From Oscillospiraceae bacterium (GTDB taxonomy: Bacteria > Bacillota > Clostridia > Oscillospirales > Ruminococcaceae): 64,000 bases of DNA. Positions 136-50,681 of the stretch are shown piece after piece. Under the pieces are notes generated by a model. The model did not search any database. It was not told where the DNA came from and saw only the letters and a list, made by a program, of their open reading frames with translations. Numbering within the stretch: position 1 is the first letter of the stretch; every line of letters starts with the position of its first letter. A program made the translations under genes and the position numbers. The stretch spans positions 15,833 to 79,832 of the forward strand of contig JALEJQ010000008.1 in assembly GCA_022769565.1 (NCBI GenBank), written 5' to 3'.

Positions 136-762
136 ATGAAAAAAGACAAACGGGATATGATACTTGACGCAGCCGAGGAGCTTATGGGCGTAATGCCCGA
201 CAGTGACATTACGGTTGAACATATCGCAAAAAAAGCCGGCATCGGAAAGGGCAGCGTGTACTACTATTTCCACAGCAAGGATGAGATAATAGACGAGGTG
301 GTAGTGCGCAGCTACAAAAAGGCTCTCCGTGAATATTTCCGGGATATTGACGAGCGGCAGACGGCTATCGAAAAAATAAAGCGGCTTTTTGACAGCATGA
401 TAAAAAAGGAATTCCACAACAATCAGCAGAACCTTCTTATTGCGCTGAATATCCGAGACAATATCACCCTGCGGAACAAAATGAAAATGGCAGCCATAGA
501 AACAGTCGCCCCCGTTCTGGCGGAGCTGCTTGACCAGGGCATTGCGGAAGGCACCATAAAAACCGATATGCCGGAAGAAAGCGCCGAAATGATAGTTGCG
601 ACAATATCATTCCTGTTCGATACATCGGTATTCCCCGAAAGGGATCAAAAGCTGCACAACAAGCTGCGGCTCCTTGCAAGGGTACTGGAGACCTGTCTGC
701 GAGCCGAGTCGGGCAGCTTTGATTTCCTTTTCAGCCGCCGTGACAACTACACCAATAATTGA
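136..762 (+). CDS. TetR/AcrR-family transcriptional regulator
   Basis: 208-aa ORF. N-terminal HTH signature ITVEHIAKKAGIGKGSVYYYFHSKDEII is typical of the TetR family. The stop abuts the next ORF. Confidence 0.85.
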   Translation: MKKDKRDMILDAAEELMGVMPDSDITVEHIAKKAGIGKGSVYYYFHSKDEIIDEVVVRSYKKALREYFRDIDERQTAIEKIKRLFDSMIKKEFHNNQQNLLIALNIRDNITLRNKMKMAAIETVAPVLAELLDQGIAEGTIKTDMPEESAEMIVATISFLFDTSVFPERDQKLHNKLRLLARVLETCLRAESGSFDFLFSRRDNYTNN

Positions 763-776
763 AAGGATGTTTTCAT

Positions 777-1919
777 ATGAACAAAAAGGAACTTGCGGAA
801 ATAAAAAAGAATTTCAGCGATACAAGCGGATTTTTCACACTTAACAGGGTCGTTACGGTTTACATAGACCCACAGAAAAACGTCCGCTGCAAGACAAACA
901 GGCTGTACAGCCTTATTCCCGAAGAGGAAGGCTCCGTGCTTATGGAATCTCTCAGCAAAATTTTCAGAGGCAGCCTGGGCAAGGGTCTCCTTGAATACTC
1001 CTTCCCCAACGCCGAATACGAGGAGGACGGCGCACAGAAGATACTTTACGACGCAATGAAGACCAAGCTCACCGACGAAGCCGCTGCGGACAAGCTTATT
1101 GTGCGAATTGTCAACAACCTTGCCTACGAAGCGGCGTACACCATTATTCTCGGTCACTGCTCCTACAGCATAATGTCCAAGGACAGAAATGACGAGAGCC
1201 TTGACAACGCCGCAGACGAGTACAACTTTATCGTTGCCGCCATATGCCCCGCAAACACAAGCGACGACGGACTTATGTTTGACAGCGAAACAAACACTAT
1301 CGTAAAAAAAGCAAATACCGACCTTATTATCAGCCGTGAGCCTACAGACGGCTTTTTCTTCCCCGTTTTCAGCGACAGAGCACCCGATGTTAACAGCGTT
1401 ATGTACTTCACAAAGTCCCCCAAGAAGCCCAACATTTCCTGCATTGATGATGTTCTCGGCTGCGAGTTCATAATGTCCGCACACGGCGAAAAGGAGACCT
1501 TCCAGGCAGTTCTCAACGATGTTGCCGGAGATGAGCTTAACTACACCGTTATAACCCAGGTCAACGAAAAGCTGAGGGAGCTTGTTGCAAATTCAAAGAA
1601 CGAGACCGAGCTGCCCGTTTTGGACGGAAACAAGATGTACAACATTCTTTCCGATTCGGGAATAAGCGATGAAAGGCTTGAAGCGCTGCCTGCCATATAC
1701 AAAAACAAGGTTGGCGACGGCGTTCTTACCGCAACCAACCTTGTTGAAAACAAAACTACCCTTTCCACCCCCGAGATAACCGTGAACATCAGCAAGGACG
1801 CTACCGACAAGGTGCGCACCACCGTTGTTGACGGCAGACGCTGCCTTATTATCGACCTTGACGACCCTGCAATTCAGATAAACGGTATGACTACACGCAT
1901 TACGGGGAACAGTATATAA
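777..1919 (+). CDS. conserved hypothetical protein (DUF4317-like, from memory)
   Basis: Long uninterrupted ORF. I prefer the internal ATG at 777 (MNKKELAEIKKNF...) over the TTG at 759. Soluble acidic protein with no recognisable catalytic motif. Confidence 0.6.
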   Translation: MNKKELAEIKKNFSDTSGFFTLNRVVTVYIDPQKNVRCKTNRLYSLIPEEEGSVLMESLSKIFRGSLGKGLLEYSFPNAEYEEDGAQKILYDAMKTKLTDEAAADKLIVRIVNNLAYEAAYTIILGHCSYSIMSKDRNDESLDNAADEYNFIVAAICPANTSDDGLMFDSETNTIVKKANTDLIISREPTDGFFFPVFSDRAPDVNSVMYFTKSPKKPNISCIDDVLGCEFIMSAHGEKETFQAVLNDVAGDELNYTVITQVNEKLRELVANSKNETELPVLDGNKMYNILSDSGISDERLEALPAIYKNKVGDGVLTATNLVENKTTLSTPEITVNISKDATDKVRTTVVDGRRCLIIDLDDPAIQINGMTTRITGNSI

Positions 1920-2082
1920 GGGAACCTCTAAAAACCTCCTTCACGGCAAATCCTCTATGAGTTTTGCCATCTGCTTCGTTATCAAACCTTGTAATACATC
2001 AAGTATTACTGCGGTTTGATGCCTTGCAGCTGACAAAACTCATTACGAGGCTTTGCTCGTGTCCCGGTTTTTAGAGAACCCC
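1920..2082 (+). repeat. 163-nt rod-like hairpin repeat (GGGAACCTCTAAAAACC...GGTTTTTAGAGAACCCC), copy 1
   Basis: Near-identical second copy at 50378-50541. The arms are complementary, with compensatory differences between the copies. Flanked by ATAA on both sides. Confidence 0.85.
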
Positions 2083-2103
2083 ATAAGTAAAAAGGAGCTG
2101 CCA

Positions 2104-2715
2104 ATGCTTGAACAAATAAAAAAATTCGATAACGGCTTTACGCTTAAAAGGAAAGGCTTTTTTGCGCTGGGAGCGGTGATGCTTGCGGTGCTGTGGGCGG
2201 TGCTGTGGCTTATTTTCCCTATGGAATGGTACGCTGTGTTTTTCGCCTCAACAGTCGGCAGCTATGTTACCCTTGCGCTCCTTGCGGCGGTGCTGATACT
2301 GCCCTTCTGCTGGCTTTTTTCCCTTATTACCTCCACAAACATATCAGTAACGAAGAATTTTATCGTTAATTTCATTTTTCTTATAGGAACGTTCTTTCTT
2401 TTTGCCGCCTTCCGCTACAGTATGGTATGGCTTATAATAATTGCGGCGGTGCTTCATATTGCCGCTATGGTATGGGTGCTGGGAACTGCGCCAACTGTGC
2501 CGAAAAAGCGTATAAAGCGAATGAAAGCAAAGCCTGTTTTCTACGAAAAAATAACAGGCGGTAAGGTAAAAGCCGATGAGGACAGCAGCGCAGAGCTTCT
2601 TCCCATAAAAAAACAGCCGATAGCAGTTATACTAATGGCTGTTTTGTATGTAGTTTTAATTGACCTTGCTTATATCCTGCTTGCATGGCAGATAGCGTTC
2701 ACCTTCAACGGCTGA
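2104..2715 (+). CDS. hypothetical polytopic membrane protein
   Basis: ATG at 2104 preceded by AAAAGGAG. Several long hydrophobic segments. No recognisable family. Confidence 0.6.
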   Translation: MLEQIKKFDNGFTLKRKGFFALGAVMLAVLWAVLWLIFPMEWYAVFFASTVGSYVTLALLAAVLILPFCWLFSLITSTNISVTKNFIVNFIFLIGTFFLFAAFRYSMVWLIIIAAVLHIAAMVWVLGTAPTVPKKRIKRMKAKPVFYEKITGGKVKADEDSSAELLPIKKQPIAVILMAVLYVVLIDLAYILLAWQIAFTFNG

Positions 2716-5898: not shown

Positions 5899-5927
5899 TT
5901 GACAAACTGGAATGTGTGAGTTATAAT
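5899..5927 (+). promoter_or_regulatory. sigma-A-type promoter (TTGACA-17-TATAAT)
   Basis: Perfect -35 at 5899-5904 and perfect -10 at 5922-5927 with a 17-nt spacer. It points into repeat copy A and the lipase gene. Confidence 0.65.
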
Positions 5928-5956
5928 ATTATACAGCATATAGTATCATAACTTTA

Positions 5957-6115
5957 TACTAATCTTTGACCGTTCTATAGACAAAGACGGCAAATAGAAC
6001 ACAGCCAATCAAGATAAGCGGCCGCAGCAAGGCTTGGTGCCTTGCAAGGGAGCTTGACGCCGAGTGGCTGGGTTATAGCTGTCGGATTTGTCTATAGGTT
6101 GGTTAACGATTAGTA
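5957..6115 (+). repeat. TACTAAT-family structured element, copy A (candidate cis-acting RNA or MITE)
   Basis: 159 nt with termini TACTAAT/ATTAGTA. Collinear with copies at 21919-22076(-), 36067-36226(+) and 60266-60423(+). Nested stems show compensatory changes between copies. Confidence 0.85.
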
Positions 6116-6138
6116 TTATATCAAAGGCGGCGGAAAAT

Positions 6139-6954
6139 ATGACGGCAGATACAAAATATCCCATATTAATGGTTCACGGCATGGGCTTTCGTGACTATAA
6201 AAATCTGTGCTACTGGGGCAGGATACCGAAAATACTGGAGCAGAACGGCGCAAAGATCTATTTCGGCAGACAGGACAGCAACGGCTCGGTAGAGAGCAAC
6301 GCCCGTCAGCTTGAAGCAAGCCTTAAAGCCGTGCTTTCCGAAACGGGCGCAGAAAAGGTCAATATAATTGCTCATTCCAAGGGCGGACTTGAAGCACGTT
6401 ATCTTATTTCAACAATGGGTCACGGCGAAAAAATTGCGTCGCTGACGACCCTGTCCACTCCTCATAACGGTTCGCTGACTGTGGATAAGCTGCTTGCTCT
6501 GCCTGCGCCTGCCGTTAAGCTTTGCTGCAAGGCTGCAGATCTGTGGTTCAGACTTCTGGGCGACAGATCTCCCGATACATACAATGCGGTAAACACCTTC
6601 AAAACAAGCACGGCTGATAAATTCAACAGGGAAAACCCCGACGACCCCCGTGTTTATTACCAAAGCTACGGCTTTGTAATGAATAAAATGACCTCCGATA
6701 TGACAATGTGCATACCGTGGCTTGTGGTACATAGCATAGAGGGAGAAAACGACGGTCTGCTTGCGCCGAGGGCAGTTAAATGGACAAATTTCAAGGGCAT
6801 ATACAGCGGAAGCGGCAAACGGGGAATATCCCACTGCGACGAAGTGGATATGCGCCGCAAAAGGCTTTCCGTCCGCAGCGAAAATGCCGCTGTAAACGAC
6901 ATTACGGAGCTGTATCTTCATATTGCGGCGGAACTGAAAAATATGGGCTTCTGA
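6139..6954 (+). CDS. alpha/beta-hydrolase triacylglycerol lipase/esterase
   Basis: YPILMVHGMGF oxyanion region and nucleophile pentapeptide AHSKGG, as in small Bacillus-type lipases. The ATG at 6139 lies just 3' of the repeat. Confidence 0.8.
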   Translation: MTADTKYPILMVHGMGFRDYKNLCYWGRIPKILEQNGAKIYFGRQDSNGSVESNARQLEASLKAVLSETGAEKVNIIAHSKGGLEARYLISTMGHGEKIASLTTLSTPHNGSLTVDKLLALPAPAVKLCCKAADLWFRLLGDRSPDTYNAVNTFKTSTADKFNRENPDDPRVYYQSYGFVMNKMTSDMTMCIPWLVVHSIEGENDGLLAPRAVKWTNFKGIYSGSGKRGISHCDEVDMRRKRLSVRSENAAVNDITELYLHIAAELKNMGF

Positions 6955-36018: not shown

Positions 36019-36064
36019 ACAAAAACAGGCGCAATTCACATTGAATTTCGTGTGAATTGCGCCT
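36019..36064 (-). terminator. intrinsic terminator of the proBA-containing transcription unit
   Basis: Minus-strand 14-bp stem AGGCGCAATTCACA/TGTGAATTGCGCCT followed by GTTTTTGT. Confidence 0.65.
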
Positions 36065-36066
36065 TA

Positions 36067-36226
36067 TATTAATAACCAATTGTTCTATGGATAAAGACGG
36101 CGGATAGAATACGTCCGGTCAAGGAAAGCAACCGCCGCAATGCTTGGTGCCTTGCAAGGGGAGCTTGACGCAGAATGGGCGTATTATAGACGTCGGATTT
36201 GTCTATAGGTTGATATGAACTTAGTA
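36067..36226 (+). repeat. TACTAAT-family structured element, copy C (degenerate termini)
   Basis: The core is near-identical to copy B. The left terminus is TATTAAT and the right outer stem is lost. It abuts the stop codon at 36227-36229. Confidence 0.8.
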
Positions 36227-48183: not shown

Positions 48184-48320
48184 CTTTGTGCTTTTTGTGC
48201 AGAAAATGTCGATTTGTACAATGTAACGGATTACTGGCATAAGCGGACATTTATTTTGTACAAGTTATAGCAAAAATTTTGTGTTATGTGCCGAATATTT
48301 GTAAATATGGGATACAACGC

Positions 48321-48349
48321 TTGAATTCTGTACTCTTTTGGTATATAAT
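48321..48349 (+). promoter_or_regulatory. sigma-A-type promoter (TTGAAT-17-TATAAT) of the MCP gene
   Basis: Hexamers at 48321-48326 and 48344-48349. Confidence 0.5.
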
Positions 48350-48392
48350 GAAAAGACAAATACAGCTTATTCTTTTTCAGGAGGATATGACA

Positions 48393-50363
48393 ATGAAATC
48401 TATCAGTAAAAAAATAACGCTGAACACAGTTCTTTTAGTATGTCTGGCTCTGTTTGTCATGGGCGGAGTGGCGTGTTCGATAGTTTATAACTGCGCCGTG
48501 GATCTTACAAGAACGAGCATATTGGAAATTGCCGAGGTTATGTCCGAAAGAGTGCGGTGGGAGATCGAGGCTTACCATAATATAGCCAAGGATCTTGGTA
48601 CTTCCGAGGTGCTGTGCGACCCCTCTTCCTCAAAGGAAGAAAAACAGGCTATCCTTGACGCTAAGACCGCTCAGTACGGACTTCAGCGCTGCAATTACAT
48701 AGATGCGTCCGGAAACGGCATCGACGGCAATAACTACAGCGACAGAGCCTATTATCAGTCTGCGATGAAGGGCGAGGCTATGGTCTCCGAACCCCTTGTT
48801 TCAAAGGTAACGGGCAAGCTGACTATAATAATTGCCGCTCCTCTGTGGAAGGACGGCATCGCAAATTCCGAAGCTATCGGCTGCGTTTACGTTGTTCCCG
48901 ATGAAGAATTCCTCAACGAGATCATGCGCAGCACAAGGATAGGCAAGAACGGCGTTGCGTTTGTCCTTGACAAGAACGGAACACTTATTGCTTCCATTGA
49001 TTCGGACAGCGTTAAGGCAGGCGTAAACTTCATTGCCCTTGCCGAAATGGACAAGGCATACGCAGGTATGGCTTCTCTCGGTGAGAAAATGATAACAGGG
49101 GAAAGCGGAACGCTGGAATACTCCTTCGGCGGAACCACCTGCTTCTCCGGCTATTTGCCTTTAAGAGATACAAACGGCTGGTCTCTTGCCGTTTATGCTC
49201 CTGCAGGAGATTTCCTCTCGTCAACATATAATGCTATAATCATTACGCTGGTTGTCAACGTTATATCGGCAATTATCGCAGTAATACTTTCTATCCGTCT
49301 CGGCAGAAAGATCGGCGGTCCTGTTTCAAAGTGTACCGAAAGAATAAAGCTCCTTGCAGAGGGCGACCTTTCTTCTCCAGTTCCTGTAATACGCTCAAAG
49401 GACGAAACAGGAGTGCTTGCAGAGGCAACGGACAGCGTTGTTTCCAGCCTTAACAATATAATCGGCAGCATGGGCGGCGCTCTCGGACAGATGGCGGAAG
49501 GAAACCTTGCTGTGGATATTTCCGATGACGAGCGCTTTTATGTGGGCGATTTCGGCAAGCTGGCAGAATATGTAAAGAGTATTGATGAAAAGCTCAGCGA
49601 TACTATGGGTCAGATCGGCATAGCTGCAGATCAGGTGTCCGCAGGCTCCGAACAGGTATCCGCAGGGGCACAGGCTCTTTCGCAGGGCGCAACCGAACAG
49701 GCTTCCTCCATTGAAGAACTTGCAGCTACCATACATGAGATATCGGGTCATGTAAACACCACCTCACGGAACTGCTCGGAAGCAAGACAGCTTGTCAACG
49801 AGACCTCGGATAAGGTAAACGAGGCAAACGAAGAAATGAACCGCCTTACCTCTGCGATGAACAACATCAACGACACCTCCAACCAGATAGGAAACATCAT
49901 AAAGACCATTGAAGACATTGCTTTCCAGACCAATATCCTTGCCCTTAACGCCGCAGTTGAAGCCGCAAGAGCAGGTGAAGCAGGAAAGGGCTTTGCAGTG
50001 GTTGCTGACGAGGTAAGAAATCTTGCCTCCAAGTCTGCCGAAGCTGCAAGCAATACCACAAAGCTTATCGAACAAACCGTTGAAGCCGTAAGAAACGGAA
50101 CGGAAATAACCGCCGCTACCGCAGAATCCATGAACAAGGTGGGCGAATATACAGCCAAGGTGGAAAACATCGTTATCAGCGTAGCGGACGCAAGCGAACA
50201 GCAGGCGGATATGATAGACCAGATAACAACGGGAGTGGAGCAGATCTCCGGCGTTGTACAGAACAACTCCGCAACTGCCGAAGAAAGCGCCGCCTCCGCA
50301 GAAGAGCTTTCAAGCCAGGCTTCGATGCTCAGAGAGCTTGTAGCTTCGTTTAAGGTAAAGTAA
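48393..50363 (+). CDS. methyl-accepting chemotaxis protein (Cache-like sensor, HAMP, signalling domain)
   Basis: TM, extracytoplasmic domain, TM, HAMP, then the highly conserved MCP hairpin [37 protein letters not shown]. Confidence 0.9.
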
Positions 50364-50377
50364 ACAGAATAAAATAA

Positions 50378-50541
50378 GGGAACCTCTAAAAACCTCCTTC
50401 ACGGCAAATTTTCTATGACTTTGTTCATCTGCTGCGTTATCAAACCTTGTAATACATCAAGTATTACTGCGGTTTGATGCCTTGCAGCTAAACAAAGTCA
50501 TGGACGAAAATTTGCTCGTGTCCCGGTTTTTAGAGAACCCC
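50378..50541 (+). repeat. rod-like hairpin repeat, copy 2
   Basis: Collinear with 1920-2082. Same termini and apex, with compensated arm differences. Flanked by ATAA on both sides. Confidence 0.85.
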
Positions 50542-50681
50542 ATAAAACAAACTGTCAGACACGACAGCGGTACATCCTCTGCCGTGTCTGCAGATTTTCA
50601 CAAAAAGCGACGTTTTTTTGTCTGCCGTTAATTTGCACAGAAAAACGCCGTTTTTTTTTATACCCTATTTCAAAAAGCCCC

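Follow-up and report, generated by a model that had tools for sequence, protein, structure and literature searches.

The window analyzed here, a stretch of 64,000 nucleotides from an Oscillospiraceae bacterium, carries two copies of a long hairpin behind the ends of genes, at 1920-2082 and 50378-50541 on the + strand. These positions were correctly given in a preliminary description, which regarded the copies as members of a repeat family placed right after stop codons and flanked by ATAA. The question is whether such rods are structured RNAs of the host that act between cistrons or mobile DNA that became inserted at these sites. Our data indicate that the 163-nt hairpin is very probably a non-coding MITE, which is moved by an IS5-type transposase and generates a 4-nt, A/T-rich target duplication. 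It thereby represents an ordinary type of bacterial repeat, the fold of which is preserved unusually well. Every feature of MITEs that could be tested was found, and an IS5-type parent fits. With 163-164 nt, and 181-247 nt in its variants, the element stays under the MITE size limit of about 400 bp, and the ORF lists contain neither an ORF of at least 70 aa inside it nor a transposase gene. The preliminary description had considered its claim incompatible with a match to a known MITE family, and in this respect it has to be revised, as the family is a MITE in kind.

Copy 1 (163 nt, 1920..2082, + strand) is located between a gene for a DUF4317 protein of 386 aa (759..1919, + strand; Pfam PF14199, E = 1e-113) and an ORF of 203 aa without Pfam match (2104..2715, + strand), which in relatives is separated from the DUF4317 stop codon by about 20 nt. 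The element directly abuts the TAA of the DUF4317 gene. This stop codon is part of the left ATAA (1916..1919, + strand), where TATATAAGCTAAAAGGAG occurs only once in the sister species G003, and the right ATAA (2083..2086, + strand) is followed by the ribosome-binding site AAAGGAG, 8 nt past the element as initially described, and by the ATG at 2104. Copy 2 (164 nt, 50378..50541, + strand) is situated in the 3' region of a gene encoding a methyl-accepting chemotaxis protein (MCP) with dCache, HAMP and MCPsignal domains (48279..50363, + strand); it begins 14 nt past the stop codon and is flanked by ATAA at 50374..50377 and 50542..50545 (both + strand). The 17-nt terminal inverted repeats, GGGAACCTCTAAAAACC on the left (1920..1936, + strand) and GGTTTTTAGAGAACCCC on the right (2066..2082, + strand; reverse complement GGGGTTCTCTAAAAACC), match each other at 14 of 17 positions. 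They are near-invariant over 34 copies, with an entropy of 0.04, and the left repeat matches the ends of IS5-family elements. The apex module ATCAAACC-TTG-TAATAC-ATCAA-GTATTA-CTGC-GGTTTGAT (1981..2020, + strand) has homologous cores in two other MITE families, which are discussed below. Aligned to each other, the two copies are 90% identical. As first noticed, the termini and the apex are the same in both, while the differences cluster in the middle stem and are paired (CC/GG versus TT/AA, G/C versus C/G); copy 2 belongs to a different subfamily with a TTTC/GAAA middle stem.

The census in the genome of the window (G000; 2.57 Mb on 109 contigs) revealed 10 full copies, one 5'-truncated copy, one lone right end and three short left-end stubs. 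A covariance model built on 34 copies recovered the same set in this genome as the sequence search. The family is thus a genuine one, as had been proposed, and its stem is kept by compensatory changes. All 10 full copies are flanked by a perfect 4-nt direct repeat, the sequence of which differs among copies: ATAA was found three times, TAAA and TTAT twice each, and TACA, TTAA and TTTT once each. Since the flanking repeats vary among copies, they represent a target-site duplication and not a fixed ATAA signal. The proposed ATAA bracket holds for 3 of the 10 full copies, including both window copies, whereas the other seven carry different tetramers, and the reading as a fixed flank was rejected; ATAA is merely the commonest of many 4-nt duplications. 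Of 51 copies from 14 genomes, 32 show a perfect 4-nt repeat compared to 0-2 of 51 in offset controls, and at least three of the four positions match in 41 of 51. The perfect duplication is missing in 19 of the 51 copies, nine of which still match at three of four positions. A 5-nt direct repeat was found in none of the 51 copies from these genomes. The duplicated tetramer is nearly pure A/T at all four positions in this set.

Empty sites were found in relatives. At the position of copy 1, the sister species G003 has the sequence AGTATATAAGCTAAAAGGAG, with one tetramer and no element between flanks that are 92-96% identical, and the site is likewise empty in the relatives G012, G001 and G009. 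The insertions at C94:48414 and C71:28836 in the window's genome are also precisely missing from G003, where flank identity amounts to 93-99% and the two alignments share 4-5 nt. Hence, 3 of 3 tested sites are precisely empty in G003, with the tetramer present once, and these insertions are therefore younger than the split of the two species. Downstream of the MCP gene, at the site of copy 2, the sequence of G003 is different and lies near a contig end. Of the 18 other species in the genus, 13 carry the family, and a search of 42 other genera found it in none. Most species of the genus harbor 5 to about 50 copies per genome, amounting to hundreds genus-wide, and counts of the left end (terminal repeat) reach about 31 and about 49 in two genomes. 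Between species, the identity of copies reaches 98%. The family represents a clean natural set of young insertions with filled and empty sites, whose flanks are 92-98% identical between species.

The hairpin itself is remarkably stable in silico. Folded as RNA, copies 1 and 2 reach -74.2 and -76.4 kcal/mol, respectively (z = -12), and 0 of 200 shuffled sequences were as stable; folded as DNA, both strands of copy 1 form rods of -40 and -47 kcal/mol. The designation as a perfect rod was correct with regard to the rod-like fold, but the rod is near-perfect rather than perfect, because it contains conserved bulges and internal loops. Among 34 distinct copies, 24 of the 54 predicted pairs show double-sided changes, including transversion swaps (CG<->GC, UA<->AU). 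Paired cells account for 97.2% compared to 87.1% in shuffles, none of 500 shuffles reached the observed value, and only 30-48% remained paired when the registers were slid by 1-3 columns. When two fixed G-T pairs are excluded, only seven variable cells are G-U versus 30 that are C-A or A-C. Such strict Watson-Crick complementarity is therefore expected from a constraint at the DNA level or a strand-symmetric one and not from selection on one RNA strand. Moreover, the entropy of interior paired columns (0.51) exceeds that of unpaired columns (0.34), compared with 0.04 in the terminal repeats. A plain MITE needs no interior, and transposase binding alone does not explain the combination of covarying stems and conserved loops. 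The fold probably matters for the propagation of the element lineage. The rod shape might be kept because it benefits propagation, or it might be maintained by hairpin-templated correction. In most of 48 folded elements, the reverse-complement strand, folded as RNA, is more stable by 5-15 kcal/mol than the strand initially described, because C-A mismatches become G-U pairs on that strand.

A role as RNA could also be based on the location relative to genes. Every one of the 45 copies whose flanks were usable lies between genes. According to crude ORF calling, 23 of 50 adjacent gene 3' ends are no more than 15 nt away from an element end, 11 of them no more than 1 nt, compared with only 7 of 40 gene 5' ends that are within 15 nt. 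The placement right after stop codons thus applies to the window copies (0 and 14 nt) and not as a rule for the family; the association is real but statistical, a tendency. It can be explained by TAA-containing targets together with the purging of insertions inside genes. The elements show no orientation bias relative to their neighbors (14 ++, 12 --, 12 convergent and 7 divergent contexts), despite the strand difference in RNA folding mentioned above. In frame 1, the sequence GGG-NNN-CTC-TAA is found in both terminal repeats (window 1920-1931, and the minus strand of 2071-2082). At four copies from other genomes, the neighboring ORF now ends at the TAA inside the terminal repeat, so that the element can supply a stop codon.

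The best surviving alternative is a cis-acting structured RNA of the host, which would follow cistrons as an mRNA stabilizer or RNase III site and be maintained by selection; we consider it improbable. Its attraction comes from the high stability of the rod as RNA, the strong stem covariation with loops that are better conserved than stems, and nearly half of the adjacent gene 3' ends lying within 15 nt. Precedents exist as well. For Correia or NEMIS elements of Neisseria, RNase III cleavage at the terminal repeats in mRNA has been documented (PMC10969869), and the bcr1 element of the Bacillus cereus group, which is about 155 bp long and flanked by 5-bp direct repeats, is documented to be transcribed, with compensatory changes that keep its RNA structure (Delihas 2011, PMC3184786). 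Likened by description, bcr1 is similar to the present family as a MITE-like Firmicutes element with short flanking direct repeats, strain-variable distribution and compensatory changes that keep a long fold, but it has its own sequence and 5-bp instead of 4-bp repeats. The Correia elements are also MITEs, of 100-160 bp, with terminal repeats pairing into a long mRNA hairpin; they differ in duplicating TA and in having other terminal repeats. We know of no IS5-type partner of Correia elements. Against the RNA role stands, first of all, the missing orientation bias: a preference for tandem contexts in one direction is absent (14 versus 12, besides 7 divergent and 12 convergent ones), so the role is unsupported. 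In addition, orthologous sites are empty in relatives, which means that no locus depends on the element, and nearly every compensatory change is a strict Watson-Crick swap, unlike the pattern expected from selection on one RNA strand. Furthermore, neither a terminator nor a promoter was found within the element. A reading as intrinsic terminator, which would be a G+C-rich hairpin followed by a T run, was rejected: no terminator call covers the whole element, which is followed by ATAAGTAAAAAGG, and within copy 1 the only terminator-like call concerns a minus-strand stem of 5 pairs (2060-2045). The promoter scan of two regions within the element called none. Rfam 15 gave no matches in the window at the gathering score, the element staying below threshold, and permissive thresholds yielded only generic hairpin (miRNA precursor) noise, all of it sub-threshold. 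If transcribed, the element would form a long double-stranded RNA rod, a possible substrate of RNase III or barrier for exonucleases.

The reading as a MITE moved by an IS5-type transposase is supported by complete insertion sequences with the same ends. The element L100 from Acidovorax (1286 bp) is identical to the left end of the MITE over 20 nt at both of its ends, and the same terminal repeat occurs in L182 (1241 bp, with a TATA duplication) and L181 (1261 bp), which come from other genera of the same bacterial family; further fragments with this end exist in the same family. The transposases of the full-length elements consist of DUF772 and DDE_Tnp_1 domains and belong to NCBIfam transpos_IS5_4 (NF033581). 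Of 80 transposases from metagenomes that are related to that of L182, 66 lie in complete elements of 1.20-1.29 kb. The end consensus of these 66 is GGnmACCTCTAAAAAC, i.e. GG-n-(A/C)-A-C-CTCTAAAAA-C. At their insertion sites, perfect 4-nt duplications were found in 17 of 57 distinct cases compared to 1-2 in controls, and the targets TTAA, ATAA, ATAT, TATA and TGTA show the same spectrum as those of the MITE. Insertion sequences of the IS5 group thus share the terminal repeat GGnnACCTCTAAAAAC(C), the 4-bp A/T-rich duplication and the target spectrum with the hairpin MITE, and the link to this clade rests on the agreement of three independent features, namely end sequence, duplication length and target type. 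The differences are that the MITE has no transposase gene, that its interior is unrelated, barring a weak subterminal resemblance to L182, and that the 19 genomes of the genus yielded no cognate insertion sequence. IS5 itself uses YTAR as target tetramer, which differs from the targets of the MITE. In public genomes (loci L050-L129), many MITEs with unrelated interiors begin with the same 17-nt end, mostly with 4-nt A/T duplications; their hosts are other Oscillospiraceae, Treponema and other Spirochaetes, Sulfurovum, Nitrospinota, Acidobacteriota and Deltaproteobacteria. The occurrence of the same end on MITEs of several phyla therefore points to one IS5 clade that spawned them.

Within the genus, two queries detected no transposase of the matching clade in 19 genomes, the assemblies of which are fragmented, so that contigs with insertion sequences may be lost. 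The sole IS5-family element found in them, present in 5 of 19 genomes, is about 30% identical to the matching clade and has different ends (GGAAACGCTGAATAAA). In the genome of the window, such resident elements (transpos_IS5_4) are located at C49:11821-13003 and at about C66:4004-5225, with ends GGGAA(A/C)CGCTGAATAAAT; in our own alignment, they have only the first dozen or so terminal bases in common with the MITE. The element on C49 is flanked by TTAG and CTAA, which are inverted and not direct repeats, as if exchanged between copies. A third DDE_Tnp_1 match in this genome (C104) was discarded; by eye, it resembles an IS4-type fragment, and it has no matching end. Either the resident IS5 element cross-mobilizes the MITE, or the cognate insertion sequence is missing from the fragmented assemblies. 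No cognate element was found even though the insertions postdate the split from G003, which counts against the IS5-MITE reading. A similar constellation has been described for the Nezha MITEs of cyanobacteria (130-170 bp), where an insertion sequence with matching repeats was found only in another species (PMC3184786). Nezha resembles the present family in its empty and filled sites between close relatives and in the partner outside the host species, but the partner is ISNpu3, the sequence is another one and the host belongs to another phylum; by analogy, the absence of a cognate insertion sequence from the genus would parallel the Nezha case.

The absence of the transposase from the 19 genomes would also suit a decayed, immobile relic, in which the window copies are palindrome remnants homogenized by gene conversion. 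This possibility appears highly improbable in view of 10 full copies in one genome and hundreds across the genus, three insertions younger than the split from G003, and copies that are up to 98% identical between species; the conserved bulges likewise argue against simple homogenization of a palindrome. A REP-like palindrome spread by a Y1 transposase (RAYT or IS200-IS605-type) or by recombination instead of a DDE enzyme is the least probable alternative and can be dismissed, for although the element is an intergenic palindromic repeat and the genome contains one borderline Y1_Tnp match (C71:5402-5662, 23 bits), this match is weak and unlinked to any copy, Y1 elements lack both target duplications and terminal inverted repeats of such type, in contrast to the exact 4-nt duplications and IS5-family-identical ends found here, and 163 nt compare to 20-40 nt of a short REP palindrome. 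Regarding the novelty of the hairpin MITE, phage and plasmid collections gave no match with blastn in distant mode, a full-text literature search with the terminal-repeat sequence returned unrelated primers only, and no description of the family was found in the literature searched.

For the MITE, the following mechanism can be proposed. An IS5-family DDE transposase (NCBIfam transpos_IS5_4; Pfam DUF772 and DDE_Tnp_1), presumably supplied in trans, would bind and cut at the 17-nt terminal inverted repeats. Staggered cuts 4 bp apart might be introduced in an A/T-only tetramer with a consensus of roughly T-W-A-A, and repair of the cuts would copy the tetramer onto both flanks. Tetramers containing TAA would be good targets, and insertions inside genes would be purged, so that the survivors crowd short intergenic spacers, often on a stop codon. 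The stop codon at the insertion site would be kept by the target duplication. When Ruminococcus-like genomes from gut and rumen are annotated, such rods should be treated as mobile DNA and masked, and should not be taken for riboswitches, leaders or processing sites.

One modest question that is raised by the present study concerns the interior, because the covarying rod of this DDE-mobilized MITE is common to MITEs with different transposases. The covariance model also matched a MITE family of the same genome that ends in TACTAAT (35-48 bits), with members at about 5899-6139 and about 36050-36220 of the window. For comparison of the cores, the interiors were trimmed by 25 nt at each end and locally aligned in relation to shuffled sequences. 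The interior of the hairpin MITE scored 23.5 against that of the TACTAAT family (shuffled mean 8.9, s.d. 1.5) and 28 against that of a third family with ends TAAGGCAATACCGC... (shuffled mean 9.4, s.d. 1.7), and all three family pairings scored 8-11 s.d. above shuffles; the reverse-complement control, which was done for the hairpin MITE versus the TACTAAT family only, gave no signal. Of the 19 genomes of the genus, 17 contain the third family; in the genome of the window, it is located at C23:14698-14879, C37:4311-4490, C71:15925-16103 and C87:64293-64471. The apex CCTTG-stem-AYCAA-stem-CTGCG is common to the three families, and its stem covaries between them. A homologous core of about 90 nt is present in families with different ends; thus, three sets of ends carry one core. 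The TACTAAT family shares this core, the rod architecture, the host genomes and the missing orientation bias with the hairpin MITE, but its terminal repeats are entirely different, as is its target. It is conceivable, although rather unlikely, that the rod with its conserved apex represents a transposase-independent "chassis" that is itself under selection; this reading is based on the one core under three sets of ends, the covarying stems and the better conservation of unpaired compared with paired positions. The core could be a functional nucleic-acid module, such as a hairpin binding a host factor or a fold that joins the ends. If the chassis reading is true, the core has repeatedly gained new ends and outlived the turnover of transposases.

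The data set also contains remnants and enlarged versions of the element. At C84:30364, C59:13300 and C93:26580 in the genome of the window, the left end stands alone as a stub of 12-14 nt (ATAAGGGAACCTCTAAAA) without the rest of the element, and the orthologue of the C84 site in G003 lacks those 13 nt. This suggests that an element was inserted and that the whole palindrome was later deleted, probably through microhomology linking the terminal repeat's A run to the A-rich flank. The stubs show the route of copy loss in the same set that documents the insertions. Longer variants of 181-221 nt with extra small hairpin modules are located in this genome at C41:2327-2547, which is just upstream of the window, and at C62:4962-5182, C24:26630-26850 and C40:5820-6000. 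One of the variant modules is a 40-nt insert, GTAAACGCT...AGCGTTTAC, next to the apex, and in another variant the subterminal hairpin is replaced by GAGCAATATGAAGTATTGCTT. Matches in relatives that span only positions 1-80 of the element were initially taken as possible ends of a full-length insertion sequence, but turned out to be a MITE variant of 197 nt. Finally, a mini-hairpin GGTAAACG..GTTACC, which is similar to the variant modules, is present in some copies of the TACTAAT family.
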